A DNA stretch of 64,000 nucleotides from Proteromonas lacertae (lineage: Eukaryota), in assembly GCA_002245135.1 (NCBI GenBank), contig NGBS01000027.1, positions 1 to 64,000 on the forward strand. The letters run 5' to 3'. Shown here piece by piece: positions 3,486 through 60,776 of the stretch. Position 1 is the stretch's first letter. The number at the start of each line of letters is the position of its first letter. A model generated the notes under the pieces. It made no database searches, had not been told where the DNA came from, and was given only the letters and a program-made list of their open reading frames with translations. A program made the translations under genes and the position numbers.

Positions 3486-6400
3486 ATGAGATTGATAGAC
3501 TTGGTTTTATTACAATTGCTTGGTATACATCATTTCTATTTATGCTCTCTAGTTTGTGTATGCCTGTGTGACAGTTGTAGTAGTTTGGTTTACAATTTTA
3601 CTTCAACAGAGGTTTACTTTGATGGTTCATTTAAATGTTGCAGGTTGGTTAATGATTCTCCAAATGAATCTCAGTGTAAAGAAGCTGTAAAGTCTTTACC
3701 TTTATCAGATTCCTTTACTTACTTTGAAGTTGAGTGTTTTAAACCAAAATCTGATGAATTGGCATGTCACTCACCAAGATATTACATTCATCCTATTAAA
3801 GCAACAATTGCTATTCAAGCTGAATCTCCTTTTGTGAAATTAATCGATTCAACATGTTCTGATTGTAATGTGTCCTGTATAGCTTCATCAGTAGCCACCA
3901 GATTTATCACAATATCCTATCTCAGGTATAAAACCAGAAGCATTTGCTGAAAAACCATTGAATCCAGTGTTTTGTCTTGTTCAACAAGATTTACATTACG
4001 AAATTATATCTTCACAAGCAGGAGCATTAAACAATCAAAAAGCAGATAATGACAATGACAATGATAATAATGGTGATGATAAAAAAGATGGAGACAATAA
4101 TAATGATGGAGATGATGAAAAGAAAGCAGCAGCAAATAATGAACCTGTAGCAGCAATTGCAGCAACATTACCACCAACTACACTGCCTCCAATGACTGTA
4201 CAACCCACTGTATTTAATAATAATAATAATAATAACCAAGTAATGAATAATAATGGAATGATTAACAACAATGCAGTAAATCAGATGAATAACAACAACC
4301 AAGTGATGAATAATGGTATAAACAATAACAATATGAATAATGGAATGATTAATAACAATCAAGTGATGAATAATCAAGTAAATAATGGAGTTAATAATAA
4401 TGGATTGGTAAATAACCAAGTTATGAATAATGGTGTAGTTAACAATGGAATAAATAACAATAACCAAATGAATAACAACAATCAACTCAACAATGGAATG
4501 AATAACAACAATCAAATGGTCAACAATAATATGAATAATGGTGTAGTAAATAACAATGGAATAAACAATAATGCAGTTGTTAATAATAATCAAGTGATGA
4601 ATAATGGTATGGTTAATAATCAGATGAATAACGCTGTAAACAATAACAATAATGCTGTTAATAACCAAGTAAGCAATGGAATGAACAATAATGTAGTCAA
4701 TAACGCTGTTAATAATAATAATGTAGTTAATAATGCTGTTAACAATGGAGTTAATAATAATGTAATGAATAATCAAGTAAACAATGGAATGAACAATAAT
4801 GTAGTCAATAACGCTGTTAATAATAATGCTATCAATAATAACAATAACGTAGTTAACAACCAAGTTAATAATGGAATGAACAATAATCAAGTAAATAACC
4901 AAATGAATAATGGTGTAGTTAATAATGCAGTTGTCAATAACAATAATGGAGTTAACAACCAAGTTAATAATAATGCTGTAAATAACAATGCTGTAAATAA
5001 TAATAATGGAGTTAACAACCAAGTCAATAACAATGCTGTAAATAACAATGCTATAAATAATAATCAAGTAAACAACAACAATCAAGTAAACAATGCAGTC
5101 AATAATAATGCTGTAAATAATAATGCAGTCAATAATAATCAAGTAAACAATCAAGTAAACAATGCAGTTAATAATAATGCAGTAAATGGTGAAAGTGATA
5201 AAAGGCCAATAATCAAAGATGATGCAGATGGTGTTGATAATAACAATAACAATGTAAAGAGTAATGACACTAATAAAATGCCACCAATAATTCCACCTGA
5301 TGATGTAAACCAACCAAATAATGCCAATCAGAATCAAAACAAAGAACCACCTAATGAACCAGAAATTGCAAGTATTAGAGATAAAGGAAGAAGTGGTTCA
5401 TCTGGTACTGTTGTTATATCATCAAATGTAGCTGGAAAAGTATATTGTATTGCTTTTGCAGAAAATGAACAACAACCTGATGTTGATAAATTGAAATCGG
5501 AAGGTGTTTCTGCAGAACTTAAAGAGAATGATGTAAGTGATGTGAAAGTCACCGATTTAGAGTTGAATAAGAAATATAATGTATCTTGTTACTATGAAGC
5601 TGATAATGGTCAAACCAAACTGTTCGAACCTGTATTATGGACTATAGGTGAAAGTTATATATTATATCCTCCAACAGCAACATGGGAAGGTAATTATACA
5701 ATATTAGTAACCATTAAAGCAAGTCATGCTAGTACAATTCAATGTGTGTTAGCCAGTCATGAAATGGATGAAAATACCTATCCAATTCCAGAATTAGAAA
5801 ATAGTAAATTTAGTGGATCAATCACTGAGAATAATGGTACTGCAACATTGAAATTATCACTCTTGTCTGTCAAAGATTTTAGCTCAAGAAAAGTAATATG
5901 CCTAGGAACAAGAGAAGAAGATACGAAAATGAAAGTTTCCACTATATTTACAATGAATTCGCCAATAGTTACAATCGGAGAATTACCTAGTAAAGGTGAT
6001 ATGAATTTATTACAAGTAAATGTTCCATTAACTTGTACTTCTTCATCTAAAGGTATTTGTCAAGTAACTTTCCCACATCATACATTATCCATTGAAGAAT
6101 TATTAACATCAGGAAAACCCTTTGAATGTGAGAGTTCAACGAATATAAAGTTTGATGTAAAACCATGTAGAGAATATGTAGTTAATTGTATATCCTATGA
6201 TAAGAGTGAAATTCCTTATTCTGTGAATGAATCAAAACGATTTGGATTATGTGATGCAGTAGCTGATAATGAATCATCAGGAGTTACAGTGAGTGAGATA
6301 ATACTAGTATCATTTGTAGTTGGTTTAGTAGTAGTTGGAGGAATATTCGTTTATCGAAGATATATATCCCCAGAAACTGGTGGTTTATCGTATATATAAT

Positions 6401-8338: not shown

Positions 8339-10345
8339 TGTTATTGCATGTTACTAATAAATAGTGTTCATCCTATTATCTAAAAACAATAAAATTCAAA
8401 ATAGATTCAAGCTTGACAGTATCAAACTTACTTTTCATTTTTTCATATTTATTTTCTATTTAAGAGTGATTTTATATTTCCTATTATAACAACAGTTAAA
8501 AATTAATATAAAAAAATTAAATTTAATATCTTAAATAATAATATTATATGGAAATTTACTTAATTCATAAGAATTAATTACAATTATATCATACTCAACA
8601 GATTCCTATACATTTATCGATTCTCCTAATGAAACATGATCATTTTCATTATCATCAAAACATTTTGAACTTTGACGACCTAAACTATGAATTACTTTTG
8701 TATTATAACCATTACAATAAATACATTTATGATATACAAAATGAAATTTTACTATGCTCTTCTTTTCACAGTCATTACAATATATCTCATTCTTCATATG
8801 ATTAAATTCACCGGGCAATTCTTCTTCATTCTTTAAATATTCATCGATTGTTTTATAATATTCACTTGCATCATATATGGATTTACAACATAATGGACAA
8901 ACATAATTCGTTTTCATATATTCATCTAAACATTCTTTATGGATTATATGACCACACTTCAATTGAATTATTGTCTCACGACTTTCAAATACTTCATCAA
9001 AACATATTGGACATTTGGATTTACAGTTTGATTCAATACAACTATGACATTCTTTTAATACACAACCTTCACATCGATCACAATGAATATATTTACTCTT
9101 ATCTCCTAAACGACATAAACCACATTTATCACAATGATATATTAACTTTTTATTGTCATTTTCATATAATACACATTTTTCACAGTAATAATTTCCAAAT
9201 TTTATACCACATTTTTCACATTTATTACTTATTGCACTTTGAATTGTATTACAATATAAACATCTGATTTTACTTATATTATCACTTTTACCTGGATGGT
9301 TTACACTTCCATCATGACATCGACAGCATACATACCATCGATTACAACAACTGAAGTATAATACACAGTTACGTTGGTAATGTTCACAACCATATATTTT
9401 CTTATCTTTATTATTCCAATATTCGTCATTTTCATCATCATAATCTTCTAATTCTTTTGAATTACATCGATTAGACATGTTACTGATTTGACGGTATAAT
9501 TTCGTTAAATAATCATAAACTAGACGAAAGGTCAAGATTTTCTATTTAATATTACGATATATGTACCATACTTGATTTATCTTATTCTTTTCTTCATCAC
9601 TCAATTCACTTCGTTTTTCTAAGATTCGAATTGCTTTCTCAATTATCACTTGCTAAAATGCATTAATATTCAAATTTTATACCTCAACAGCTATTTTATC
9701 TTCACCACACATGTTAGGATGCTTGGAAATAAACACTTTGTATAATTTATTCAAATGTTGCTAAAGGACAACTATAAAACAATATAAGCATACAACTAAC
9801 TTATCAGAATCATGATAACACTCAGTTGGTATGTAAATATAGTATGAATTCATTCTTCTTTAAATTCTTTTTGATAAAAAAAAGAATATTCAGTTATTTT
9901 GAATGAATGACGAATCTGGTTTCACGACGATTCATTTTAACTCGTCATTCTAGAAGTATTATACATATATGACAAAACCAATATATCTGAGTGATGTGAT
10001 ACTTGTGACAAAATGAACTGACTACACAGGTGTAGAGTAAATTAAATTCTAGACTACAAATCTATCCCTATAATTAAAACTGTAATATTTTTACATGGCA
10101 TAAAGAGACCATTATATTGTGAAATAATATTGGAGTGATAAAGCACTTCTGATTTTGAAAATGTAGTAATTTTAAAACGTCAATACATCACATTCTTAAA
10201 CATAAACTGATTAATATAATATTCGTTCATCAAATGATTTCACATAACAACACTCTGAAATAGAAGACTATCTAATAGATATTACATTATCATGACGTTT
10301 GCCATTATATCGTGATTGCGATGATGAAATTATCTTAAGCTTATA
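8339..10345. repeat. Left arm of a 2007-bp inverted duplication
   Basis: Reverse complement of 10636-12642 (coordinates sum to 20981); the match breaks at 8338/12643 and 10346/10635. Confidence 0.95.
8606..9853 (-). CDS. RCHY1: RING finger and CHY zinc finger E3 ligase (Pirh2-like), copy A; 3 small 5' introns
   Basis: YGCEHYQRNC...CCRCHD (CHY), YHCDKCGLCRLG (CTCHY), CPICFDEVFES...CGHIIHKECL...CPLC (RING-H2), IYCNDC...YHKCIYCNGYNT (zinc ribbon). Confidence 0.92.
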
Positions 10346-10635
10346 CCATAATTCAAAATATTTACTAAATGAAACTGTTATTCTTCAATAATAAATTAGA
10401 ATAACCATTTCTTTTATCGACTATTTAATTATATTACATTTTCAATGGTACACTCTATCTGTTTATCACAAAAAATACACTCAAACATTTATCAAGCTTT
10501 ATGAGATATATCGAAAATGAGATGATACATATGATTTTTAACAGTATTTGTATGATTATGGTGGTTATAAAAGCAACTATTATTTGTGTTGAATGAATAT
10601 TAGTTAATTATCACAGTGAAATGTCTGAATGAAGA

Positions 10636-12642
10636 TATAAGCTTAAGATAATTTCATCATCGCAATCACGATATAATGGCAAACGTCATGATAATGTAAT
10701 ATCTATTAGATAGTCTTCTATTTCAGAGTGTTGTTATGTGAAATCATTTGATGAACGAATATTATATTAATCAGTTTATGTTTAAGAATGTGATGTATTG
10801 ACGTTTTAAAATTACTACATTTTCAAAATCAGAAGTGCTTTATCACTCCAATATTATTTCACAATATAATGGTCTCTTTATGCCATGTAAAAATATTACA
10901 GTTTTAATTATAGGGATAGATTTGTAGTCTAGAATTTAATTTACTCTACACCTGTGTAGTCAGTTCATTTTGTCACAAGTATCACATCACTCAGATATAT
11001 TGGTTTTGTCATATATGTATAATACTTCTAGAATGACGAGTTAAAATGAATCGTCGTGAAACCAGATTCGTCATTCATTCAAAATAACTGAATATTCTTT
11101 TTTTTATCAAAAAGAATTTAAAGAAGAATGAATTCATACTATATTTACATACCAACTGAGTGTTATCATGATTCTGATAAGTTAGTTGTATGCTTATATT
11201 GTTTTATAGTTGTCCTTTAGCAACATTTGAATAAATTATACAAAGTGTTTATTTCCAAGCATCCTAACATGTGTGGTGAAGATAAAATAGCTGTTGAGGT
11301 ATAAAATTTGAATATTAATGCATTTTAGCAAGTGATAATTGAGAAAGCAATTCGAATCTTAGAAAAACGAAGTGAATTGAGTGATGAAGAAAAGAATAAG
11401 ATAAATCAAGTATGGTACATATATCGTAATATTAAATAGAAAATCTTGACCTTTCGTCTAGTTTATGATTATTTAACGAAATTATACCGTCAAATCAGTA
11501 ACATGTCTAATCGATGTAATTCAAAAGAATTAGAAGATTATGATGATGAAAATGACGAATATTGGAATAATAAAGATAAGAAAATATATGGTTGTGAACA
11601 TTACCAACGTAACTGTGTATTATACTTCAGTTGTTGTAATCGATGGTATGTATGCTGTCGATGTCATGATGGAAGTGTAAACCATCCAGGTAAAAGTGAT
11701 AATATAAGTAAAATCAGATGTTTATATTGTAATACAATTCAAAGTGCAATAAGTAATAAATGTGAAAAATGTGGTATAAAATTTGGAAATTATTACTGTG
11801 AAAAATGTGTATTATATGAAAATGACAATAAAAAGTTAATATATCATTGTGATAAATGTGGTTTATGTCGTTTAGGAGATAAGAGTAAATATATTCATTG
11901 TGATCGATGTGAAGGTTGTGTATTAAAAGAATGTCATAGTTGTATTGAATCAAACTGTAAATCCAAATGTCCAATATGTTTTGATGAAGTATTTGAAAGT
12001 CGTGAGACAATAATTCAATTGAAGTGTGGTCATATAATCCATAAAGAATGTTTAGATGAATATATGAAAACGAATTATGTTTGTCCATTATGTTGTAAAT
12101 CCATATATGATGCAAGTGAATATTATAAAACAATCGATGAATATTTAAAGAATGAAGAAGAATTGCCCGGTGAATTTAATCATATGAAGAATGAGATATA
12201 TTGTAATGACTGTGAAAAGAAGAGCATAGTAAAATTTCATTTTGTATATCATAAATGTATTTATTGTAATGGTTATAATACAAAAGTAATTCATAGTTTA
12301 GGTCGTCAAAGTTCAAAATGTTTTGATGATAATGAAAATGATCATGTTTCATTAGGAGAATCGATAAATGTATAGGAATCTGTTGAGTATGATATAATTG
12401 TAATTAATTCTTATGAATTAAGTAAATTTCCATATAATATTATTATTTAAGATATTAAATTTAATTTTTTTATATTAATTTTTAACTGTTGTTATAATAG
12501 GAAATATAAAATCACTCTTAAATAGAAAATAAATATGAAAAAATGAAAAGTAAGTTTGATACTGTCAAGCTTGAATCTATTTTGAATTTTATTGTTTTTA
12601 GATAATAGGATGAACACTATTTATTAGTAACATGCAATAACA
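10636..12642. repeat. Right arm of the 2007-bp inverted duplication (290-bp spacer 10346-10635)
   Basis: Mirror of 8339-10345; identical ORF translations. Confidence 0.95.
11128..12375 (+). CDS. RCHY1: RING finger and CHY zinc finger E3 ligase (Pirh2-like), copy B
   Basis: Same as copy A; ATG at 11128 and three GT-AG introns join in frame to the 309-aa ORF. Confidence 0.92.
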
Positions 12643-12696: not shown

Positions 12697-15600
12697 TTAG
12701 TTATTAAAACAATTCAATTCATCAAGAAGGGAATATATCTCTTCTTCTTTATTTGGATCATCTCCTATGTATTCTTTTGCATTTTCATAACATTCTTTGG
12801 CTATTTCTTTTTCTTGCTATACAGTTATAGAATAATTATTAGAAGAATATAATATATAATATTATACACATTTAGAATAGTATTTTCCCATTACTAGATA
12901 ATAGTTATATTTTGAAATATCATCATTCATACTCTCTTTAGCTAGATTTAGATAATATAATGACTTTTCTTTATCTTTACAATATAAATAACATTCTGCT
13001 ATATTGGATTGTGCTACAGATATACAATTTTCATCTGCATATTCTAATGATAATAAACAATATTTCAATGATTCTTGATAATCTTCCTAATTCAATATAA
13101 TATTCTCATATGTATACAATACAAAAATAGCAAACACCTAAGTATTGAGCATTTGAATATTTATCTGCATCTGTTAGAGTATATTCAGATTCTGTTTTAA
13201 AGTAATGAATTGCTTCAACATATTTTTTCTATTTTGATTCAATATAATTGTTTTTATATTATACCATATCCATATAACATAAACCAATATAGCTATTATT
13301 ATTTGACATTTCTCTATTTGATGATGAATGTTCTAATGCAGTTTTAAAGTATGGAATTGCTTCTTCATAATCATTCTATTAATTATTATCTGATTGATAT
13401 ACCAAACTATAATAACACTTTCCAATACAAAAATTATTCTCTACAATCACTTCATCTGATGTGCTATTCTCTAATGCTAATTTATAATACTGAATAGCTG
13501 TTTCATAATTTCCCTATAACAGTAATTAAACATTCATTTTTATACTATTATAACATAACATAATGCAATTTTTCCATTACATGCTTCTCTATTTTCATTT
13601 GATGAACAATACTCTAATTCTGATTTATAATATTGAATAGCTTCTTCATAATCATTCTATTAATTATTATAATATATTTATTATCATACAATGTTTATGT
13701 GGCATAAGCCTAATAAATTGTTACAACTTGATGTTGCTTCGTCTGATGAAGAATACTTTAAAGCCAATTTAAAAAACTGAATTGCATCTTCAAAATCACA
13801 CTATATAACATAATTATTTATTTGATATACCATTTCAAAACAGCACATACCTAAAAAATGCATATCATTTAATATTTCTGTATTTAATGAAGTAGATTCT
13901 AATGATGATTGAGTATGTGAAATATCTTCATCAAAATTATGCTATTATTAATATTATGCAATAGTTATTATACTATTTCCTTATAACACGAAGCAATATT
14001 TTTTATATATTTTAATTTATCTTCATTAGATACAGAATTTAGTATAGCACACTTAAGATATTTAATTGCTTCTCTATAATTATTCTATTGTTATTATAAT
14101 ACAATATTGTTATACTAACTTCATATAACATAGAGCAATATTCTCATTATAACCTTTACAATCTTCTAGTGAGGTAGAACATTCTAATCTTGATTTAAGA
14201 TAAGGAATTGCTTCTTCATAATGATTCTATACATTAATAGATAAAAATTGTTATACTGAAGCCAAATAACAAATACCAATTATTCCTATGCATTTTTGTG
14301 TCTGTTCATCTGATGAAGAATATTGTAATGAATATTTAAAATATGGGATTGCTTCTTCAAATTTATCCTATTCAATTAACAACTCTATTATTTATACCAT
14401 ATTTAAATAACATATGCCAATACTATCATTAAATTCTCTTTTATCTTCATCTGATGAAGCATACTCTAATGCAGAATTATAAAAAGGAATTGCTTCTTCA
14501 TATTTTTTCTATTCATTTCTATATTTTATTAACAATACAATTTGCATTAAAACTAAACCAACATTTGCATTATTACCTACAAAATCTTCTTTTGTTGGAC
14601 AAAACTCTAAAGAAGTTGCTATATACGGAATGGCATCTTCATAATTATTCTATTCAATATTATTTACTTCACATTTATACCATTTTCAAATAACATATAC
14701 CTAGATTATTACTATTATATGATCTTTTCTCATCACAAGAACATATATCTAATGCTGATTTTATGAATGGAATAGCTTCTTCAAACTTATCCTATTTATT
14801 TGTATATATTCTAATACTTATACAATTTTCAAATAGCAACTACCAATGTTTGTATAATCCATTTCTTTATCTTCATCTGATTTACTTAACTCTAAAGCAA
14901 TCTTAAAATACGGAATTGCCTCTCCATATTTCTCCTATTCAAACCACATTTGGAATATTTATACCATTACAGAATAGCAATTACCAATCATATTATTATA
15001 TTTTGATTTTTCTTCAATTACTGTTGAATGTTCTAAAGCATTTCTAAAACATGGAATTGCCTCTTCTATATTAACTATCATATAACACATTCCCATTCTT
15101 TCATTCAATTCTGTAATACTATCATTCGATGAACAATAATCTAATGCACATTTGAAATATCTAATTGCTTCTGCATATTCACCCTATTAATAATAATAAT
15201 AATATATTATACCATTCCAGAATAACATAAACCAAGATATTTGTTATTATCAAACTTTTCATTCTTTGAGATTGAATATTCTAATGCTGATTTATAGAAT
15301 GGAATTGCTTTTTCAAACTCATTCTATTTGATGTTATTATACTTTAATTTTATACATTATTGAAATATTGACTTGCATTACTTCTGTAATATTCTTCATC
15401 CTTAACTTTAGATGAAAAGAGTTTTAAAACAGATTTAATGAAAGGATTTGTTTTTCTACTATCTCTCTTTTTATCTTCTAATGGAATAACTGGAATTTCA
15501 GATTTGACATTACTAGTAGCAATTGGAACTTTATCTTCACTTAATCCTATGGTAATACATCACAATAATATATAATTCTATACTTTTCAATTCATTCATT

Positions 15601-16402
15601 ATTTCATTCAACTCCAAACGATCTTTTTTTTCTTTAACTAGTATTTTCTTTAACAATGAGTTTAAGTTATCACTACTTTCACATTCTAATTGAATATATT
15701 TTATATTCTCAATGTTTTTCATTGTCTCAAACGTGTTTGATCCAAGAAAAGGATATTTCCCACTTTTAATATAGTAAACTACTAATCCAAAATTCCACAT
15801 GTCACTTGATATATCTAATTCTTTTCCTAATATTTCATCTATACAAACAAAACATAAAATCATTTTCATCTCTCTTTATTTTGTTTTTTCTTCCTTTATA
15901 TAATAAATTATTACAATAATCATTAATAACTACTTCATTTTCATCATTCAGAAAGATATTGGAGGGTTTTAAATCACTGTGAATTGTTCCTATTTTTTTT
16001 AGAATCTTCAACATCATCAATATTCCATTTAATACTTTAAATATACTAAAATTTTCTTTGAAATATTTGACAGGATTTATTTCAGCTAAATTCACTTTAT
16101 ACCCTTCCATTATTCGATATAATACATTTTCATCTTCCTCTATCACCTTGTATTTCATGAAACAAGATATATTCAGATAATTCACTATCTTCATTTTATT
16201 TAACACTTCAACTACTATTTTGTCATCCAACTCACTCACATCTGTCACTTTTAATAATTTTGTTGAATTGTCATCCATATCTCGAATTCTGTGAAGTTTA
16301 TTCTTCAATAAACCATCATTCAACAACTATGAAGAAATTGAGTAGAAACAAAAATTATACTTCATATCTATGTTTGGTCAACCAATTGACAAGGTTGTTC
16401 AT
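12697..16402 (-). CDS. Degenerate protein kinase domain plus about 19 TPR-like 37-aa repeats, mostly one per exon; 1-nt frameshift near 15860
   Basis: Kinase motifs HSDLKPSNIFL, INDYC (DFG position), SDMWNFG, GKYPF. Repeats of type xxYEEAIPYFKxALEYSxSxExxxxxNxxIGxCYxxM, separated by about 30-nt GT-AG introns. Stop at 12699-12697. Confidence 0.85.
13118..15323 (-). repeat. Tandem exon-intron array (about 142-bp period): 14 exons of 111 nt plus one two-repeat exon, all with phase-0 introns
   Basis: For example exons 15323-15213, 14934-14824 and 13228-13118 are each 111 nt and bounded by tag| and |gtat. Confidence 0.9.
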
Positions 16403-21322: not shown

Positions 21323-21581
21323 TGTTGTAATTGTTTATATTTTTTCACTTTTTTATGCTGTGTTGATTATGTAAATAGATTTTTTAATGTTTAAAAATAA
21401 TATTCGTTTCATTTTCATCTAATCGTATTTTCTTATTTTCTGATCAGTTTCTCAGTTATTCAGTGCTTTTATATCATTTATTGGAAACTATTCATATTTT
21501 AGATTGGATAAAGCAAAATATCAATCAGCAGAGCAAATTTACACAATTTTTGTAACAAATAGTATATAGGTCAATTGAAAG

Positions 21582-24500
21582 ATGAATATCTATATAAAAC
21601 CATACTCAAAGTTATTTGTTGATAATGGGAAATGCTATAAAAAGAAAATCAGCATAATAGATAAATCAAAGGAATCTATCCACAATTTTGTATATTTACT
21701 CTGAATTATTATTTATATAGATATTTTCGTTGAATAAAATTTCATATTTCTTCATTTTTAGACATTCTTTTCAAATACTTCCTTCAGAACTTACAATCAT
21801 TCTTCCTTACTATAAAAATGGTTCAATACAGAATATTATTCCCCTTCAACAAGATGAATCAACAATAATAGAAATAATAAAATCAATAACAAAACAAATA
21901 GTTCAACTTCATTCAATTTATCAATTTCATGGAAGATTGAAAAGTTCAAATATTCTAATAACAGATACAGATGAATACATTATAACAAATTATTGTGAAT
22001 ATATGATAAATGATAATAGATATAGTAATTGGAGAGATAGATTCTACGAAAGTCCTGAAGTATATAGAAATAAAGAATTAATGAATGATAAAAGTGATGT
22101 TTATAGTATTGGTGTTATATTTTATGAATTATTAAATGAAGGAGAACTTCCAATATTAGGAGTGGAAATGAAAAATAATAAATACATTTCCTTAATATGT
22201 AAATTAATAGAAAGTGATTATAGAAAGAGAATATCTGCAGTTGAATTATTAAATGAATTGAAATGTATAGAAAAAAAAAGAATAGAACAAAATAGTGATT
22301 TATTTTGTTTATTATTAAGTAATAAGTATGAATTAGAGGATAGAATTGTAGAAAAATCAATAGAATTCAATGAAAGTATATATTCTTTTATTTTATGTTT
22401 TTTTTTTTTAATAGAGAATTTAATCAGAATAACTAATGATTTAAATAATAGCGATTACAGTTTATATGCTTTTGTATTACTGAAGTTAAGTTGGAAGAAT
22501 AGTAAATGGAAAGAAATAATTGATTCTACAATAGATAGGAAAGTTAGTAGTAATGTAAAAGACTTTTATTTTTCTTCAAAAAGAAAATATGGATTGAATT
22601 TAAGTAATAAAAATAGATTATTAAATATGATGAAGAACAATACAATAAGAATCACTGAATTAAAATCAATAAATTACTATGGTTGTTTGTTACTGTTTAG
22701 TTCAAAAATATATGAACAATTTTATATATTGAGGAATTTGAAATACATTAATATGTCAAGTATATATATTTTTATTTTTATTATTATTATTATTTGATTA
22801 GAAACATCTAGCAGTTATTTATATATTACTAGATTTACTAACCAACTTCATTACTTCACACATCTTAAATCATTAAAAATATCATACAATAGAATTGATA
22901 ATAAAACATTTGGAAGAATTATGAAGAATTGTGGAATTATGAAAGAGTTGGAGATGCTTTATTTAACAGGAAATAATCTTAATAACAATTCAATTAGATG
23001 CTTCTATCATTATGCTTATAAATTTCCAAATTTGAAATTAATAGGTCTATTTAAAAATAGGAAAATTAAAATGAAAAGTGTGAAACTACTTCTGTATGAA
23101 AAGATGAAAAGAAATGAAGATTTTAATTTTATGGTTGATAGTATATATTTATATATTTTCTTAATATAACTGTTATAGTATCATCCACAGCAATATTTGA
23201 CTTGCTATATTATAATGGATATGTAATAAATAAAGGAAATGTATTTAAGTCAATCAACAGAAAGACAATTCAACATATTATAGCATTATTTAACAAAGCT
23301 GAAGATAAGAATGAATTATTCATCATTTTATATATTCTCTCATTTATAAGTGAACAAAATCTCATCTTAATTAAGCCACATGTAGAAGCATTATCTCGTT
23401 ATAGAGATTTATTCAAAGGAATAGGAAATAATGAAATGATTTATCCAAGTATAATTATATATATATTCATTTAGATACATTGATGGATAAAAAATCTTAT
23501 GATTTAATAATGACAATATGTGAAAGAGCACCAAAAATATTAAAAATGGATATGTATAATACATATATAGATGATGATACTCTTTATAAGATATTGAATA
23601 ACAAAAATATTAACAGATTAAAACATGTAAAGTATTTAGATTTTTCATGTATTTATATAATCTATATATTATTATTTGTTTTATTATTTTTGTATAGGTA
23701 ATAGACTTGGTAGAAAGAGTATCAACAAATTATTCAGTTTATTTTCCACATTTCAAAATCTGACATTCTTTGGTTTTAGTGATAATTGTATTACAAGTAA
23801 CTGTGTTGATGGATTTATTGAAAATATCCGTTATTTAATATCTATTCATCATATATTCCTTGGTAATAACAACTTTAGTGAAGAAGGTACTAACAGATTA
23901 TTACAATCATTGACTTGTTGTACAACTTTAGATACATTATCAATACAACGAAGTAATGTGACTGATAAATCTTGTAAATTACTAAACCAATTGTTGAAAA
24001 AACTGCCAATGATATATTATTTAAAATTAAATAGGAATAGAATCACTGATAAAGGGATTTATAACCTTTTCTATGGTATTACAACAGCTATTTCTTTGAA
24101 AATATTAGATTTATGTGGTATATATATATATATATATATATATCATAATATATATTTAGATAATTATATTACAGAAAATGCTTTAAAATATATGTTTTAT
24201 AATACATATCTGGATAATTTAACTGATGTTAGTCTAAGTGGAAATCCAATCAAAAGAGATGATGAATTATATCTTCATATTCTTGATTTTGATGATAAAT
24301 GTATATATATATAGTTATTCATATAAACGTAGATACTGATATTGAAGATATATTATCTGATTTTAGAGGTGAAACAAAACTTACTGTTAAGAATAATAAA
24401 GTCATATCATTATCCCCAAGTATATATATTCATACTATCTTCTATTGTATAGATTTAATACATGAATTAGTTGGATTATATAAAAGTCAAAACAGGAATG

Positions 24501-24661
24501 AAGAGTATTTCAGAATAATGACAAAAGTGATATTTGAAAATCCATACAGTTCAACAAGAAATAATTTCCTGAAAGAGTTTGACAGTAATAAAGATGAGTT
24601 TAAAATGATTGAAGGTATTATTGCTGATAATTCATTAAGTTATAACTGTATGAATATAACG

Positions 24662-24697
<36 letters not shown>

Positions 24698-26525
24698 TTT
24701 ATAGATTCAAATACTATCAGTGAAAACAATTTACCTTTTATAATGGAAACTTTAAGTTATAACACTTTTTTAACATCATTATCATTGAATTACATAAAAG
24801 TATCAGATGATTTATTCACAAAATTGGTAGTAAAATTACAAAGGATGAATAGGTTTAGAGATCTTGATATATATGGTATATAATAATTATATTGATTATG
24901 AATAGGATGTGGAATTGGAGATGAAAATGTTTCTTTACTTTTTAATTCATTATCTTCTCTAACAAGTCTTAAAACAATGTATATTAACTATAACAATTTT
25001 ACACACAATTGTATTGAAAGCTTAAGTAATTTTGAACATTTAAAGAATCTTCAGAAATTGGTAATGTCAGGTAATTATCTTGGTACAGATGCTTTAAATA
25101 TGTTGTTTATAAGTTTAACATCATTAAAAATACTTGATACAATTTGTATTAGCTGTATATTATCAACATATTTATGTATTTTTTTTAAATATATAGATTC
25201 TGGTTTTACTGATGATAATTTTGAATATTTGTCAAAGCTAATGAAAAGTCTTAAGAAACTTATATTTCTTAATTTGAGAAGTATTTTCATTCATTTATTC
25301 TATTCAATAGAAAACAGTATAACTGAAAAAGGAATTAAATATCTATTTAGTAGTTTTGATGAATTAGATGTTTTTCCTTTAAAGGAGTTATATTTATGTG
25401 ATAATAATATAAATGAAGAAGGATTATCAAGTCTTTTTGATGGAATAAACAAACATTTTAGAAATTTGAAATGTCTTTATTTAAGTGGAAATGTTGTGAA
25501 AAGAGTAAATTCTGACTTATATGAAAAGATAATCTTCTATGATAAAGATTATGTTGATGATAGGAAGATTGATGAATTATCAAACAATATAACAAGTTTA
25601 AGTTATTACCATAGCACAGCAATTGTCTATTCCCCTGAAAGATTATTGAAATGTTTATTTGAAAAGTATAATATGAAGAATTATGGAGATAATAATAAGT
25701 ATTTGTTTTTATTATTCAATGCAATTAATAAAGTCACAGAATGGAATTTTAATACTAAGTCATACATTTTGGAGTGTTTAAAACAACATGATAGAGAATT
25801 AGAGGCATTTAAAGGAGCAAATGAACATTATAAGTTGATATATGATAATCTCAGCAATGAAGGATTGATGTTTTTAGTAGAATGTGTGAAATATATTTCA
25901 GATTTGAGTATATTCAAATTGAAAAACACACATATGGATGATAAAGTGTTTATTTCATTGATAAATGAAATGAAAAGGCTAATATCGTTAAAAGAAATAG
26001 ATTTTAGTAATATAGGTGTTGGAGATGAAGGAATGGTAGAATTGTTTAAGATATTTAAGAATATCATTTCAACAAAGTATTTGAATATATCTCATAACAA
26101 ATTTACACACAAAATCATGTCAATATTCACAGAAGAAGTTTATAATCTTAATAAACTGATTAAACTTGACGTTAGTTGTATATTATATATCCTCTCACTA
26201 TCATTTTATAGATAATAATCTGCAGGTAGAAGGATGTATGTTTATACTTAATGCAATTGAATATTTACCTTTATTAAGAGAAATAAATATGAATGAAACA
26301 GGATTTTCAGATAGAAATTGTAAGAAATTGTCTGAGTTACTAAAGATTTTGGATTTGAAGAAGATTTATATAAACGACAATGAAATAACTGATGATGGAG
26401 CAGAGATTCTGTTGTATGAGATAAAGAAACATTTGTATTTGAATATATGTGAGATAAAAAACAATAAAATGAGTAAAGAATTAAGCGATGAATTTGAAGA
26501 TTATATGGAAAGAAGGATGAATTGA
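21582..26525 (+). CDS. Pseudokinase plus multiple RI-like leucine-rich-repeat blocks separated by helical segments; about 14 introns
   Basis: FHGRLKSSNILI (no catalytic Asp), ITNYC, YESPE, SDVYSIG. LRRs such as LKLNRNRITDKG, LYLCDNNINEEG and IDFSNIGVGDEG. Mostly phase-1 introns. Confidence 0.8.
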
Positions 26526-26563: not shown

Positions 26564-26674
26564 TCAAAAATCAAAATCTTCAAAATCTTCAATTTCTAAT
26601 GAAGAATCTCTTGGTTTAAATAATCCTCTATTTGGTGTTTTATTATTATTAATATTGTTATTGTTGTTGTTTCT
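26564..26674 (-). pseudogene. Detached original C-terminal 36 codons and stop of the DZIP1-like gene, cut off by the hAT insertion
   Basis: Removing the element plus one TSD gives ...SLSMN-RNNNNNNINNNKTPNRGLFKPRDSSLEIEDFEDFDF-TGA in frame. Confidence 0.85.
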
Positions 26675-26682
26675 GTTCATTG

Positions 26683-29389
26683 CTGGGTTCGATAAAGGGC
26701 GTCCTTTTCGAATTTTGCCCTATTTTTGCCCCTTTTTTTTTCAGCTGAAAAGAAGCCTGCCCCTTACTGCTCGGGCATAGTAATATTACCATGTGTTATG
26801 CTGTAGTATATTTTTTCTGATTTTTTGTTATAACTTTTCCATATTATCATCTAGATATACTAACATATGTTAAAAAGGATATATTATTGTGTATTATAGC
26901 ATAATAGTCATCTACTTTTCTTATGATTATATAATATCATATGTTTATGCATATATACTAATTATATAGAATATACATACTGTATATCATATTCTGATAT
27001 GCATATATATACATTATGTACATTTCAAGGTGATTGACGTCACTGAACATAAATGAAATTTATATAATAAATAATTTTGTATATTACACATATATCATAT
27101 AGATAATTAAGAAGTATAGCTATAGAATGGGTATTTTCAGTTAATTGATAATCAATAGTACTTGTTATGATAATAACATAATATATTTCATAAACTAATA
27201 GAAAAACTATTTCAAAATTACTATTTAGTATATTTTGCATACTACTTAATGTATTTCAAGCAATTATTTGAATACTTAGAAAATGGTTTGAGAATTTCGA
27301 GCTATCATTTTGCATTTCAATTGTATATGGGTAAAACGAGAGATGCTGTGTATAGATACTTTAATGAAGATGTGGTGTTAAAGAAACCCCTTGAAAAATA
27401 CAACAGAATTCAATGCAGAAGGTGCAAGGCAATGATTATTGCTCATTGCACTAATTTGAAACGTCATTACAAAAAGTATAAATATATTTATTATATTTAT
27501 TAAATTAGATGTAGTGAAAAGCTAATCCAATCAAAACTTACATAATTGAGATATGATGAACGTGCAATAAACTTAATGGTGACCAAATATCTTATAGAAA
27601 ATAACTTAGCTTTCAGAACCATACAATCTAAATCCTTTAAAAATCTAATATATACATTAAATCCAACTACAAAGTCAATAACAATAAACAAAATAAAAGC
27701 ATCAATGAACGAAGAAGCAGAAAGAATAGTAAAGGAAATTGTAGATAACAGTAAAATATGTATAATTGTGGACGCTTGGAAATCAGTAACCAATGAAAAC
27801 GTTATTAATTTGGCAATAAAGAAAAGCAGTGATATTTCGTTTTTGGAATCCATTTATTTACATAAACGAGAAACATCAGAAAATATAGTGGAATTAATAA
27901 TTCAAACATTAGTGAAGTATAAACTAGATATTAAAAACATTGTTGCTGTGAGTAGTGATAACAACTACACCATGAAAAAGATAAGTAGTATTTTAGAGAA
28001 AAAAATAAATAGACCTGTAGTAAAGTTTGGATGTTTAGCACACATCCTAAACTTAATCAGTAAAAAAGTATTCGAAATAGAGAAATACAAAAAAGTGATA
28101 GTCATGTGTAATGACATTATTCATAAGTTAAATAATAATCAAAAGATTAGAGAAACTATATATTCAATTATACAAAAAAAATATCCAAATACGCAAGGGT
28201 TGTGATACGAGATGGTCAAGCTATAGCGATGTATTTAGAAAAATATTACTCAATAAAGAAATTTTATTACAGATAAAATTATTAAAGGAAGAAGATATAC
28301 AAGAAATTAAAGAATGCTACAAGATTGCAAAATATATTTCCACAAATATACACTTATTATGCAAAGATTCATCTACATTAAATGATGGTTTCAGAATATT
28401 GACCAAAATTAAAAGAAAGTTAATGAAAAGGTCATCAAGTGAAAAAGAACTTATTAAAGACATTATAAAAAAAGAGACTAGACATGCAAACTACAGCATT
28501 TTAGCTCTATATGAATTTTTAGACATAAACAGTAAACATAAATTTTCAGACATGGAGAAGGATAATATAAAAAGATATATATTATCTAAATTCAGCCCTA
28601 TTTTAAATCAGAAAGCATTAAATGAGATTTATCATTTTGAAAGAAGAAAACCATACTGCAAAAAGTGCCCTTCAGATATATTTTCGAAAAAGATATCAAC
28701 TAATATATGGTACAATATGTATGGAGTTTTTTACCCAAATGTTAAGAAGCTATATGATATTCTTTCAACTATTCCTGTCACAAGCTCATTTATTGAACGT
28801 TCATTTAGTATTGAGGGAATAGTTCATAATCATATTAGAAATAAATTACAGCTTAATACTATAAATAATATTTTAAGAATAAAATATGATTTATTAAAAG
28901 AAAAAAACAAAGAAAAAGATATAAATGAAGATGATAATGATATTAGTGAAGAAGAATATAATTTAGATGTGCTGAATGAAATTGATAACAATATAGTATA
29001 TGACACTTTAGATTATCAATGTTCTGGTGATGAAGATGAAAGTTCTGGTAGTTCTAGCGATGAAGGTTTAAGTGATGAAAGTTCTAGTGATGAAGGTTTT
29101 AGTGATGAAGGATCTCAAAGCCCTTACTTTTAAGGCTATTATTATAATGAAATATTATTGTTTGTTATTGTTATAAGATAATAATACATAATTATGAAAA
29201 GAATAAATATTTTTATAGCGTTTAATATCCCTAAAATCGCACAAAATATAAAAATTCAAATAAAATAATTGAAAAGGGCAAATTGTACCCTTTTCTATTT
29301 TTAGATAGTATAAAGGACGCCCCTTTCAATTTTTGCCCGGGACATGCCCTTGTCCCGCCACTGCCCTGTCCCTTTATTATTCAACCCAG
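26683..29389 (+). mobile_element. hAT-superfamily DNA transposon, copy 1 (2707 bp), 8-bp TSD GTTCATTG
   Basis: TSD at 26675-26682 and 29390-29397; imperfect TIR CTGGGTT(CG/GA)ATAA; GC-rich TGCCC/GGGCA subterminal motifs; transposase inside. Confidence 0.95.
27327..29133 (+). pseudogene. hAT transposase (BED finger, DDE, dimerization domain), intron 27476-27508; nonsense TAA at 27543 and +1 A frameshift near 28180
   Basis: CRRC...NLKRHYKK-C; IVDAW; SDN; CLAHILNL; CDTRW; SSFIERSFS. Confidence 0.9.
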
Positions 29390-32121
29390 GTTCATTGATA
29401 ATGATGTTGAATCAAATGGTAAAATATCATCATTTACTGATGTATTTTTTTGTTGATTAACAATAGGAGGAGGAGATGGTTGTTGCTGAGCTATTGGAGA
29501 TGGTCGATATAATCTATTTCTCTGGAATGATGCTTGTAATTGTTGTTGTTGTGGTGAAATATGAGATGGAGTTGTAGTACCAGATGCAACAATCGAATGA
29601 GTTGGAGAGAATGGCTGAGTAGTTGGTGTAAATGGTTTATCAACAACAGGAATAGAAGGAGGTGTAAATTTATTTGAATTTCTTTCTTCTTTTGGAATTG
29701 TTTGTTGAGTTGGAGGAGTTTGTTGTGGTTGAGGTAAAGATGTTATTATTGGTGGTGGTGGAGCAGTAACTGAAGGATGTGGTGATTGAGGTTTTATCTC
29801 ATTCTTCAAGTTTCTTAACTCTTTATGTATATCATCATCTAATGAAGAATCTGATGATATTGAAGTATTGCTTTTTGATTTATTTTTTGTTTCATTAATT
29901 CTGTTCTTTTGGGGTGTTGTTTGTTCCTTTAATTTAGCTAATTGATATTTATAATCATTTGAATCAGCGGATGAGCCAAGTGAGAAATTATCATCATCAT
30001 TCTTATTCTTATTTATATATGATTCATCAAAATTCAATCTATCTTTTTCTAATGGATTTAATTTTCTACTCAACTTATTATCATCATTCTTAATTGTTGT
30101 ATTATTTGGTTTTATTGGAGATAATAGTTGATTCTCTGATTCAAATAGATTCTTGAATTCTGAACTGAGTAGATTTCTATATAAATGAATAAATAATATG
30201 CAATATAATATATACGGATCAATATATGAACTCTCAGATGTAATTGTTGAACCATCAAACATTTCATCTTCATCTTTTCTTAACTCATCTATTACTTTCT
30301 TTGCTTCAATATATTTATTTGTCTTCTTTAATGAATCTTTCATTTCTTCATCAATTATTTCTGCTGGTCCTTTTATTGTATTGTCATTAAACTCTTGAAG
30401 ATATTCAGATTGAACATTTTGAGGTAAAACTGTTTTGTTTTGGTTTGTAATAGTTTTTCTCATTGCCTGTAATTGTGTTTGCTTTAGGTGTATATCCTTT
30501 GGATCAATTGTTTCACTCTATAAGATATATATATCATTATAAATATTTAATACATCATCACTAATACTTAAATTATTCAATTCGTCTTTATACAACTCTG
30601 GATTTATTTGGTAATTCTTATTGATCGATTTGTCTTCATTCAATTCAAGCTCTAAGAATTTCTTTTCCATTTCTTTATCGATATATTCATCATTTAATAA
30701 ATCATATGCTTCATTAATTCTAATAAATTACAATAATATACTAATAATAATACTCTGATGTTTGAATTGATTCTTCTTTCAATGTTTGAGTTTGTTGTTG
30801 TTGTTGTTGCTGAACAATTTGTACTGGTTTTTGTGAAGCAGCTAATCTCAATGACTCTCTTAATTCTTCATCTTCTTCATTCTTCTGTATTAATAAATAA
30901 TAATAATAATAATTAATAATAATAATACAATTCTTATTTTGTTTTGTAATTCTTCAATTGTTTTCATTATATCATTATAATTCTTTTTATCTCTCTCTAA
31001 CTCATCATTTGCTTTTTCTAACATCTTTATTTTATTATTCAACATCTTTATCTCATTCTCTAATTCAGCTATCTTCAATCTTAATTCTCTTATTTCCTTA
31101 TCTTTATCATCTATTTCTTTGGTTTGTTTTTCTAAATTGGCTATTCTCATGTGACATTCATCTAGTAGTTTTTCCAATCCTTTTTTCTCTGTTTCTAATT
31201 CACTTATCTTCTTTTCTAGATCGATTATTTTCTTATTCTGCTCTTGTAATAGAGTATTCAAATCCTGTATTTCACTTTCTTTCTTTTGTAATAAAGGACC
31301 AATAATTGAAGCATCTTGTTCTAAAGAATTCTTCTATATAAAAAATAATATATATAATATATACTTGTTGTGATGGTGGTGATGTTTGATAACACGTATG
31401 AGGAGGATGACCAGTGGCTTGACGATGTTTGTCCAAATAATAATCGGACTTAAATACTTTTGGACAGCCACCACATTTTCTTGCAAATCCATCACCATAT
31501 CGTGGATCACTTATTCCTCCTGCATTTGGAAAGTATCCTCTACTTTGTAACAATTTTTCATAGGTTCTAATTGTTTTTTCTTTTTGTTTTATTGTAATTT
31601 TACTTGTTTTTAAACGTTCATCATATTTTTTTAACTTGTGTGACATTTTGGTAAATACACTATAACATTCTCGTAATTTCTGCTCATATTCATCAATTTG
31701 CATGACCAAATTTTGTTGGCAGTATAACAGATATTCAACACCACATTGAAATATTAGAAATACCTTTAAAATATTATCTGGCGATGCACTATTTATTTGA
31801 TCTATATCCATCTTAGCAAAAGCGATATGATCCAGAATATTCTCCATACTCTTCACATTTGATGTAGATATTAAATCACCTACATCATAATTATACACTT
31901 GTCTCCAATTTATCTGATTTGTTCTTAACTGGAAAGTAAAACTATTAATAACATAAATTACGTTTATACGCTTCATTGGGATGTGTATCCGAAAAATCTC
32001 TTATTGAGAAATTATCAATGTCTGAGTTATCTTCTAGTCTATTTTATAATAACTTGAAAATAAAATACTCTACAGATAAATCAACAGAAATATCGTCTTT
32101 ACCCTCTTCATACTGATCCAT
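29381..32121 (-). CDS. DZIP1/Iguana-like protein (Dzip-like N domain, C2H2 finger, coiled coil, Pro/Gln-rich tail), C-terminus truncated by the hAT element; multiple introns
   Basis: FTFQLRTNQINWR...LKVFLIFQCGVEYLLYCQQNL; CGGCPKVFKSDYYLDKHRQATGH; long coiled coil. Confidence 0.7.
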
Positions 32122-57920: not shown

Positions 57921-57962
57921 AAAAGAAAAAGTAAGTAACAATTTGTTTATTTATGTTTGATA

Positions 57963-60693
57963 CTGGGTTGAATAATAAAGGGACAGGGCAGTGGCGGGAC
58001 AAGGGCATGTCCCGGGCAAAAATTGAAAGGGGCGTCCTTTATACTATCTAAAAATAGAAAAGGGTACAATTTGCCCTTTTCAATTATTTTATTTATATTT
58101 TTATATTTTGTGCGATTTTAGGGATATTAAACGCTATAAAAATATTTATTCTTTTCATAATTATGTATTATTATCTTATAACAATAACAAACAATAATAT
58201 TTCATTATAATAATAGCCTTAAAAGTAAGGGCTTTGAGATCCTTCATCACTAGAACTTTCATTTTCATCACTAGAACTTTCATCTTTATCACTAGAATTT
58301 TCATCACTTAAACCTTCATCGCTAGAACTACCAGAACTTTCATCTTCATCACCAGAACATTGATAATCTAAAGTGTCATATGCTATATTGTTATCAATTT
58401 CATTCAGCACATCTAAATTATATTCTTCTTCACTAATATCATTATCATCTTCATTTCTATCTTTTTCTTTGTTTTTTTCTTTTAATAAATCATATTTTAT
58501 TCTTAAAATATTATTTATAGTATTAAGCTGTAATTTATTTCTAATATGATTATGAACTATTCCCTCAATACTAAATGAACGTTCAATAAATGAGCTTGTG
58601 ACAGGAATAGTTGAAAGAATATCATATAGCTTCTTAACATTTGGGTAAAAAACTCCATACATATTGTACCATATATTAGTTGATATCTTTTTCGAAAATA
58701 TATCTGAAGGGCACTTTTTGGAGTATGGTTTTCTTCTTTCAAAATGATATATCTCATTTAATGCTTTCTGATTTAAAATAGGGCTGAATTTAGATAATAT
58801 ATATCTTTATATATTATCCTTCTCCATGTCTGAAAATTTATGTTTACTGTTTATGTCTAAAAATTCATATAGAGCTAAAATGCTGTAGTTTGCATGTCTA
58901 GTCTCTTTTTTTATAATGTCTTTAATAAGTTCTTTTTCACTTGATGACCTTTTCATTAACTTTCTTTTAATTTTGGTCAATATTCTGAAACCATCATTTA
59001 ATGTAGATGAATCTTTGCATAATAAGTGTATATTTGTGGAAATATATTTTGCAATCTTGTAGCATTCTTTAATTTCTGGTATATCTTCTTCCTTTAATAA
59101 TTTTATCTGTAATAAAATTTCTTTATTGAGTAATATTTTTCTAAATACATCGCTATAGCTTGACCATCTCGTATCACAACCCTTGCGTATTTGGATATTT
59201 TTTTGTATAATTGAATATATAGTTTCTCTAATCTTTTGATTATTATTTAACTTATGAATAATGTCATTACACATGACTATCACTTTTTTGTATTTCTCTA
59301 TTTCGAATACTTTTTTACTGATTAAGTTTAGGATGTGTGCTAAACATCCAAACTTTAATACAGGTCTATTTATTTTTTTCTCTAAAATACTACTTATCTT
59401 TTTCATGGTGTAGTTGTTATCACTACTCACAGCAACAATGTTTTTAATATCTAGTTTATACTTCACTAATGTTTGAATTATTAATTCCACTATATTTTCT
59501 GATGTTTCTCGTTTATGTAAATAAATGGATTCCAAAAACGAAATATCACTGCTTTTCTTTATTGCCAAATTAATAACGTTTTCATTGGTTACTGATTTCC
59601 AAGCGTCCACAATTATACATATTTTACTGTTATCTACAATTTCCTTTACTATTCTTTCTGCTTCTTCGTTCATTGATGCTTTTATTTTGTTTATTGTTAT
59701 TGACTTTGTAGTTGGATTTAATGCATATATTAGATTTTTAAAGGATTTAGATTGTATGGTTCTGAAAGCTAAGTTATTTTTTATAAGATATTTGGTCACC
59801 ATTAAGTTTATTGCACGTTCATCATATCTCAATTCTGTAAGTTTTGATTGGATTAGCTTTTCACTACATCTAATTTAATAAATATAATAAATATATTTAT
59901 ACTTTTTGTAATGACGTTTCAAATTAGTGCAATGAGCAATAATCATTGCCTTGCACCTTCTGCATTGAATTCTGTTGTATTTTTCAAGGGGTTTCTTTAA
60001 CACCACATCTTCATTAAAGTATCTATACACAGCATCTCTCGTTTTACCCATATACAATTGAAATGCAAAATGATAGCTCGAAATTCTCAAACCATTTTCT
60101 AAGTATTCAAATAATTGCTTGAAATACATTAAGTAGTATGCAAAATATACTAAATAGTAATTTTGAAATAGTTTTTCTATTAGTTTATGAAATATATTAT
60201 GTTATTATCATAACAAGTACTATTGATTATCAATTAACTGAAAATACCCATTCTATAGCTATACTTCTTAATTATCTATATGATTATGTATAATATACAA
60301 AATTATTTATTATATAAATTACATTTATGTTCAGTGACGTCAATCACCTTGAAATGTACATAATGTATATATATGCATATCAGAATATGATATACAGTAT
60401 GTATATTCTATATAATTAGTATATATGCATAAACATATGATATTATATAATCATAAGAAAAGTAGATGACTATTATGTTATAATACACAATAATATATCC
60501 TTTTTAACATATGTTAGTATATCTAGATGATAATATGGAAAAGTTATAACAAAAAATCAGAAAAAATATACTACAGCATAACACATGCTAATATTACTAT
60601 GCCCGAGCAGTAAGGGGCAGGCTTCTTTTCAGCTGAAAAAAAAGGGGCAAAAATAGGGCAAAATTCGAAAAGGACGCCCTTTATCGAACCCAG
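57963..60693 (-). mobile_element. hAT-superfamily DNA transposon, copy 2 (2731 bp), 8-bp TSD GTTTGATA
   Basis: TSD at 57955-57962 and 60694-60701; near-identical reverse complement of 26683-29389. Confidence 0.95.
58219..60051 (-). pseudogene. hAT transposase, copy 2; single nonsense change AAA to TAA at 58809-58807
   Basis: Same BED/DDE motifs as copy 1; the spliced frame is otherwise open. Confidence 0.88.
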
Positions 60694-60776
60694 GTTTGAT
60701 AAGATGTTTATAAGATTAACAAACAACATTAAAAACAAAAAAACACATTAATATGAAAATAAGTAAGGGGGGGAAA

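Follow-up and report, generated by a model that had tools for sequence, protein, structure and literature searches.

The window (the whole stretch of 64,000 nucleotides that was analysed) carries on its minus strand a gene of 20 predicted exons in which a degenerate Ser/Thr kinase domain precedes an array of 18 TPR-like units of about 37 residues, encoded by 14 single-unit exons and two double-unit exons of 219 nt. Our preferred reading, to which a probability of roughly 60% is given, is that the array grew by old tandem copying of an exon-plus-intron unit and that the protein serves as a signalling scaffold and not as a reshuffled receptor. Judging from the types of domain, a scaffold role in signalling is likely. 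The parts of the gene, as referred to below, are the following.

16402-12697, minus strand: kinase-TPR gene, 20 exons, ATG at 16402 and TAA at 12697
16361..16402, minus strand: exon 1 with the predicted start codon, 14 codons (predicted)
15584..16326, minus strand: exon 2, degenerate Ser/Thr kinase domain with a +1 frameshift (Pfam Pkinase in both halves; homologue alignment; motif map against CDPK 3lij)
15837..15878, minus strand: interval containing the +1 frameshift, adjoining short A and T runs (frame unbroken in homologues P0001 and P0002)
15356..15546, minus strand: exon 3, linker without a Pfam match, with the likely first helix A of the array at its end
15213..15323, minus strand: 111-nt exon, repeat unit 1 (exon scan)
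14965..15183, minus strand: 219-nt exon, units 2 and 3 without an intron between them, 37 + 36 aa (TPR-like four-helix model)
13118..14934, minus strand: 13 consecutive 111-nt exons with phase-0 introns of 27-36 nt between them (exon scan, gene finder)
14934-14824, 14791-14681, 14649-14539, 14508-14398, 14367-14257, 14226-14116, 14084-13974, minus strand: 111-nt exons 1-7 of these 13
13941-13831, 13800-13690, 13656-13546, 13513-13403, 13375-13265, 13228-13118, minus strand: 111-nt exons 8-13 of these 13
12868..13086, minus strand: 219-nt exon, two more divergent units, 36 + 37 aa (weak TPR_12 match, E 0.016)
12697..12816, minus strand: last exon, likely capping helix and TAA stop (predicted)

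The exon boundaries were examined with a pattern scan (YAG, an open phase-0 exon, GTA) at 111 nt and at 40 other lengths between 60 and 180 nt. At 111 nt, 15 minus-strand matches were found inside 12697-16402, comprising the 14 TPR exons and one chance match at the start of the kinase exon, and three in the remaining window, compared with 0-3 matches inside the same interval at each of the other lengths. The array exons were recovered identically by a small gene finder whose training set was other ORFs of the window. The 14 exons of exactly 111 nt described in the initial annotation are therefore real features of the sequence, and so are the phase-0 introns of about 30 nt, since all 17 array introns are in phase 0, begin with GTAT and end with TAG, and 16 of them measure 27-36 nt, the last one being 51 nt. 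This uniformity of phase goes beyond chance, because only 39 of the 97 distinct other predicted introns of the window are in phase 0. The size of the introns was also considered as a special mark of the gene and was rejected, as it is ordinary among the other predicted introns (median 34 nt; 55/99 at 27-36 nt, in predictions from a finder that allowed 22-69 nt). This intron size and the GC content of the window (about 26%) are like those of AT-rich Blastocystis lineages in the available text of PMC12129017, and introns of 30 nt also appear in the available part of PMC5608401, which allows a guess at the lineage. Across the whole gene, 19/19 introns keep GT and AG, and all array exons are open. 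The description of one repeat per exon holds for the 14 exons of 111 nt and fails for the two 219-nt exons, which hold two units each. The fused units in 14965-15183 meet at a junction that lacks 3 nt and has the form of a 10-nt GT..AG stretch, which may have been left by an imprecise intron loss; both double exons have 219 nt, yet their missing codon lies at different places. Genes of this type are split by bacterial-style gene calling into fragments of about 50-160 residues.

The identity of the units as TPRs is indicated by a Pfam TPR_1 match (28.1 bits vs a cutoff of 27.8), with a repeat period of 37 and not 34, and by the presence of the TPR pattern G8, Y11, Y17, A20, Y24, A27 together with the TPR fold. 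Comparison of the 14 single exons (91 pairs) gave identities of 50-76% for DNA (mean 60) and 16-54% for protein, with I7 kept in 14/14, A6 and C33 in 13/14, and G31 and Y34 in 11/14, in agreement with the initial description of a retained scaffold among varying residues. The exons are offset from the 34-residue TPR: each begins at position 15 (helix B) and ends at position 14 (helix A) of the following unit, so that the intron falls in the turn between helices A and B; as anchored by G8 and Y17, the three-residue insertion lies within the exon, between helix B and the next helix A. An AlphaFold2 model of the double exon 14965-15183 showed four helices (pLDDT 97.6), and a Foldseek search with this two-repeat model retrieved mostly TPR proteins, with best query TM-scores of 0.83-0.87, LGN/Pins included, and 0 rows at E 0.001. 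The most variable columns of the window units correspond to TPR positions 5, 1, 13, 2, 6, and 12, and the variable residues lie on the predicted binding groove. According to the available text of Magliery and Regan (PMC1261162), ligands are contacted by TPR positions 2, 5, 6, 9, 12, and 13, and positions 2, 5, 9, 12, 13, 33, and 34 are the most variable in all TPRs. Because such variability is general to TPRs, it marks the binding groove here and not selection.

The symmetry of the cassettes means that any exon could be skipped or duplicated without loss of frame, as had been proposed, and this part of the proposal stands; introns of about 30 nt make skipping itself unlikely. A single gene could in principle produce many TPR arrays through combinatorial exon skipping at the RNA level, a reading that draws on the phase-0 symmetry of all array exons, on the alternative splicing of LRR exons in brown algal ROCO genes (PMC11378527, part available), and on the few species that pair skipping with short introns (PMC6142364, part available). 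However, it would require excisions of about 170 nt where introns are about 30 nt, and the accessible portion of PMC6142364 associates skipping usually with long flanking introns and gives retention as the expected error of short ones. Moreover, 16/16 array introns checked contain an in-frame stop, and retention would consequently truncate the array. Isoform diversity of this kind is considered highly improbable.

The relationships among the units point to an old array. No near-identical pair was present among the 91 exon pairs (highest value 76% DNA identity), and in the per-exon phylogeny that the initial annotation had put forward as a check the tree was star-like, with internal branches making up 14% of its length and bootstrap values of 67 or less, and neighbouring exons were no closer (59.6% DNA identity) than non-neighbours (59.9%). 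The 17 array introns all interrupt the repeat at one position, and GTATAA donors are found in 12/17 of them compared with 12/97 elsewhere (p 2e-6). The interiors of these introns are more alike than their own shuffles (0/200 as high) and not clearly above other introns, as 11/200 subsets of the latter were equally alike; recent homogenisation of the array introns was rejected. Old common descent of the units fits the shared intron position, the GTATAA donors, the range of exon DNA identity, and the star-like tree. A profile search of 1601 six-frame segments found no spare or inverted cassettes in the window, recovering nothing beyond the 15 training segments (the next segment scored 11 bits, E 0.024), and the array introns, at 27-51 nt, are too short to hold spare exons.

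Selection among the repeats was evaluated with codon models on 15 units of 37 codons, using a custom script and a fixed tree from IQ-TREE. The array is under purifying selection, with an M0 omega of 0.21 obtained at low power (37 codons, deeply diverged AT-rich units, and synonymous sites near saturation). M2a was no better than M1a, so no class above 1 was detected, with little power for past episodes of selection. Two free omega classes of 0.12 and 0.43 fitted better than M1a. The site-wise comparison that had been suggested thus yielded no positively selected class, although the faster class does contain the groove sites. An initial M2a fit (p 0.07, third class with omega 1.0) was an artefact of M1a convergence and was gone on refitting. 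Considering the most similar exon pair, the lack of spare cassettes in the window, and the omega value together, the description of this copy as an actively diversifying receptor was not sustained.

A degenerate kinase ahead of the TPR array had been reported correctly. The two halves of the kinase exon matched Pfam Pkinase with 28.3 and 32.5 bits (cutoff 31.7). The domain was aligned with the proteins P0001, P0002, and P0121 and its motifs were mapped against CDPK 3lij, where LLKV, VVEV, HSDLKPSN, and DYC align with AIK, LLEE, HRDLKPEN, and DFG, respectively; the beta3 Lys, the alphaC Glu, the catalytic Asp and Asn, and the Mg-binding Asp are kept. HSDLKPSN makes the kinase non-RD, the glycine-rich loop GxGxxG before beta3 is absent from the translation of the window, and IDE stands where APE is expected. 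Because the GxGxxG and APE motifs are lost, kinase activity is doubtful, not excluded. The close relatives of this domain are three Logan proteins with 43-63% identity, the next best profile match scoring 77 bits vs 202. P0001 and P0002 share 63% and 46% identity with the window kinase, and their sequences end soon after the kinase; P0133 (43% to P0001) has the HSDLKPSN core in common and continues into a proline-rich tail without a TPR match. Judged from these sequences, the window kinase is a member of a small family whose members have other tails. A structure prediction for P0001 had low confidence (pLDDT 36.9) and was left out of the analysis. The kinase query found no locus in metagenome contigs, and no spliced full-length kinase-TPR relative was found among the longer proteins, which is weak evidence. 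A second degenerate kinase heads a long LRR gene of the window (about 21500-26525, plus strand), where HGRLKSSN and NYC are read and the catalytic Asp is missing; 12/12 predicted introns of this gene are in phase 1, the number of repeats per exon varies, and the introns of the LRR part lie, as judged by eye, at the same repeat position. In this lineage there seem to be repeated instances of degenerate kinases carrying different tails.

The initial annotation overlooked a +1 frameshift in the kinase exon within 15878-15837, through which the assembled frame stops at codon 178, before the TPRs. The homologues P0001 and P0002 have a single frame across this stretch, and the restored open frame of the window gene would yield about 1028 residues. 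An intron bypassing the lesion was considered, the gene finder having picked one of 34 nt, and was rejected, given that each of the eight formal options would remove positions at which the homologues are conserved. Either the assembly is wrong at this point or the gene is a recent null allele, and the frameshift, if real, removes the whole TPR array from the product. A copy that died recently, its product ending inside the kinase domain and its TPR array no longer being made, would agree with the assembled stop, with the lack of a plausible bypassing intron, and with the unbroken state of six long ORFs of the window (about 13.7 kb, 247 A/T runs of at least 4), by which indel errors are not rife, in ORFs selected for being open. 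However, the frameshift is the sole lesion in 3088 coding bases of a gene with all 19 introns keeping their GT and AG, it adjoins short homopolymers, and a one-base difference in an A run likewise separates the two transposase copies of the window. One-base changes in homopolymers are the usual error of long reads, though a transposon may truly decay. Recent death of the copy is accordingly regarded as quite unlikely, and it is compatible with the origin of the array by old duplication.

These transposase copies belong to a DUF659 element, presumably hAT-like, that is present as two inverted copies with 97-100% identity (26672-29401 and 57951-60704), in one of which an extra A in a run near 28175 splits the frame. 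Closer to the kinase-TPR gene, a perfect inverted repeat of 2028 nt (8339-10366 and 10615-12642, with a spacer of 248 nt) ends 55 nt from its stop codon and holds two identical copies of a CHY/RING/zinc-ribbon gene, which we take to be Pirh2-like; it is either a recent inverted duplication or an assembly artefact. The window also has an ORF of 834 codons (3895-6399, plus strand) that may encode a surface protein, with a long low-complexity repeat rich in Asn and a hydrophobic segment at the C-terminus.

Matches to the repeat were also sought in other assemblies. The repeat profile matched 116 database representatives, among which 20 short proteins (170 aa or less) contain 25 units at 20 bits or more. 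A Val directly follows the unit in 19/25 cases in the short proteins compared with 1/56 in longer proteins, and a Gln directly precedes it in 13/23 vs 12/56. Since GTN and CAG become Val and Gln when a bacterial gene caller runs on through a phase-0 intron, these flanks point to read-through of introns, and several of the short proteins have spacers of 8-13 residues between units. A Val-ended unit is present in 16/20 short proteins, each forming its own 50% cluster, and from their sequences these 16 look like read-throughs of a 37-residue exon cassette in other assemblies. All eight short proteins that were looked up occur only in Logan. The comparison set comprised 19 units from 16 proteins, after three ordinary-looking TPRs, two partial units, and one of 36 aa had been dropped. 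The variability profile of these outside units follows that of the window (rho 0.64), with groove columns the most variable in both. The 15 repeats of the window cluster among the 34 units (4 label changes vs 11.3 when shuffled), and a single clade of window units was neither rejected nor demonstrated (p-AU 0.39). Searches with the exact spacing of the exons gave 5/14 window exons and no shuffle in a stricter form, and in a looser form matched nothing in metagenome or viral contigs; a word-index search with the repeat alignment returned 69 candidates, none at E 0.1 or better.

One of the short proteins, P0007, has a hydrophobic segment instead of a kinase at its N-terminus. Its two read-through introns are identical over 10 residues as spacers, one insertion aside, and its neighbouring exons match at 16/19 positions in the helix-B half and at 6/18 in the helix-A half (p 0.0025, post hoc), which suggests a recent duplication in a related array. 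Such observations could indicate that the 111-nt cassettes form a diversifying receptor repertoire to which the window gene belongs as an older member, settled or dying. The variable helix-A halves would then be exchanged between units and paralogues by recombination in the conserved part (intron and helix-B half), changing the groove, as in Ectocarpus NB-ARC-TPR genes. The cassette signature in 16 separate clusters, the near-identical spacers and contrasting exon halves of P0007, the variable groove columns inside and outside the window, the kinase family with its different tails, and a frameshifted copy that fits birth and death would all agree with this. However, P0007 is a single case seen as a protein only, the short matches may be orthologues from many species instead of paralogues, and members of the six multi-member clusters looked up show few differences from one another, with no concentration in the groove as judged by eye. 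In addition, nothing recent was detected in the array of the window itself, and variability of the groove is general to TPRs (PMC1261162, part available). A repertoire is considered unlikely. In its more specific form, in which tiny-intron gut stramenopiles, likely Blastocystis-like, independently evolved a family of 111-nt helixB-helixA cassettes diversifying at the DNA level, the proposal is improbable to a slightly greater degree, and the same doubt applies to an exchange of helix A between units or genes with interchangeable heads (a non-RD kinase without a glycine loop, or the hydrophobic anchor of P0007). Another protein, P0006 (904 aa, one frame), combines a canonical kinase with an array of 37-residue TPRs in which helix B is near-identical and helix A is variable; its bacterial appearance would make this a case of convergence in layout.

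Under the preferred reading of old tandem copying and a scaffold function, whole repeats would have been added in frame when neighbouring units of about 141 nt crossed over unequally, and any copy number could fold, each exon providing helix B of one TPR along with the helix A that follows it. The introns would be spliced out singly and constitutively, leaving one main mRNA, the groove of the superhelix (TPR positions 2, 5, 6, 9, 12, and 13) may bind an extended partner as in LGN/Pins, and the kinase domain could act as a weak enzyme or a nucleotide-binding switch coupled to that partner. The gene offers a clean independent case of a repeat protein that likely grew by exon-plus-intron duplication, and with exons so exactly spaced, the size of the family and the order of its exons could be tested cheaply across a genome. 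A diversifying family, if that reading were true, would amount to a repertoire of intracellular receptors in a unicellular gut eukaryote. The lineage treated in PMC12129017 is reported, in the text available, to have lost many signalling genes, and no TPR or kinase is mentioned in the available main text; a large and recombining family would be a candidate non-self receptor system there, if the guess at the lineage holds. No published description of the kinase-TPR gene or of a 111-nt TPR cassette was found, and supplementary tables may hold more. The N-terminal domain of the window gene is a kinase followed by a linker without a Pfam match, NB-ARC and ROC-COR domains being absent.

Among proteins of comparable layout, BSK proteins consist of a plant RLCK kinase followed by a few TPRs, in contrast to the 18 long units of the window array. 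They provide a functional model of a cytoplasmic kinase or pseudokinase with a TPR tail as a signalling scaffold, taken here as an analogy (PMC6336344, part available). The LGN/Pins TPR structures (PDB 4wnd, 5a6c, and 4a1s), long-helix TPRs solved with bound partners, were among the best matches to the two-repeat model with query TM-scores of 0.85-0.87, a likeness of fold only at 13-16% identity and E about 0.2. Regarding gene structure, the Ectocarpus NB-ARC-TPR genes are stramenopile candidate receptors with repetitive TPR exons (Zambounis et al., PMC3341825), and in the available portion of that study they place symmetric phase-0 exons of one TPR unit each after a signalling domain, as the window gene does. 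The parallel drawn in the initial annotation stands for the structure and is not supported for the dynamics in this copy: Ectocarpus, with a count of 13/24 loci, has exons of 126 nt (42 aa) compared with 111 nt (37 aa), an NB-ARC domain where the window gene has a kinase, inactivated TPR exons inside introns where the window introns are too short and no spare or inverted cassettes were found in the window, scrambled exon order, and positively selected sites where no omega above 1 was obtained for the window array (PMC3341825). The Ectocarpus LRR-kinases, modular and without signs of shuffling in the same available text, are the nearer analogue. Brown algal ROCO genes are a further parallel (PMC11378527, part available). 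The LRR genes of Tetrahymena with 90-bp exons (Xiong et al., PMC6564038, part available) are likewise from a unicellular organism and have equal-length tandem exons with one intron phase; their arrays are ascribed to unequal crossing-over and most are under purifying selection, but they encode LRRs in phase 2 and number thousands of genes associated with retrotransposons, whereas the window gene encodes TPRs in phase 0. The unit described here (111 nt, 37 aa, phase 0, with the intron in the helix A-B turn) is unlike those of both Ectocarpus and Tetrahymena, and the kinase-TPR gene is most likely a signalling scaffold built on an independent 111-nt variant of the repeat-per-exon layout known from the Ectocarpus TPR and Tetrahymena LRR genes.
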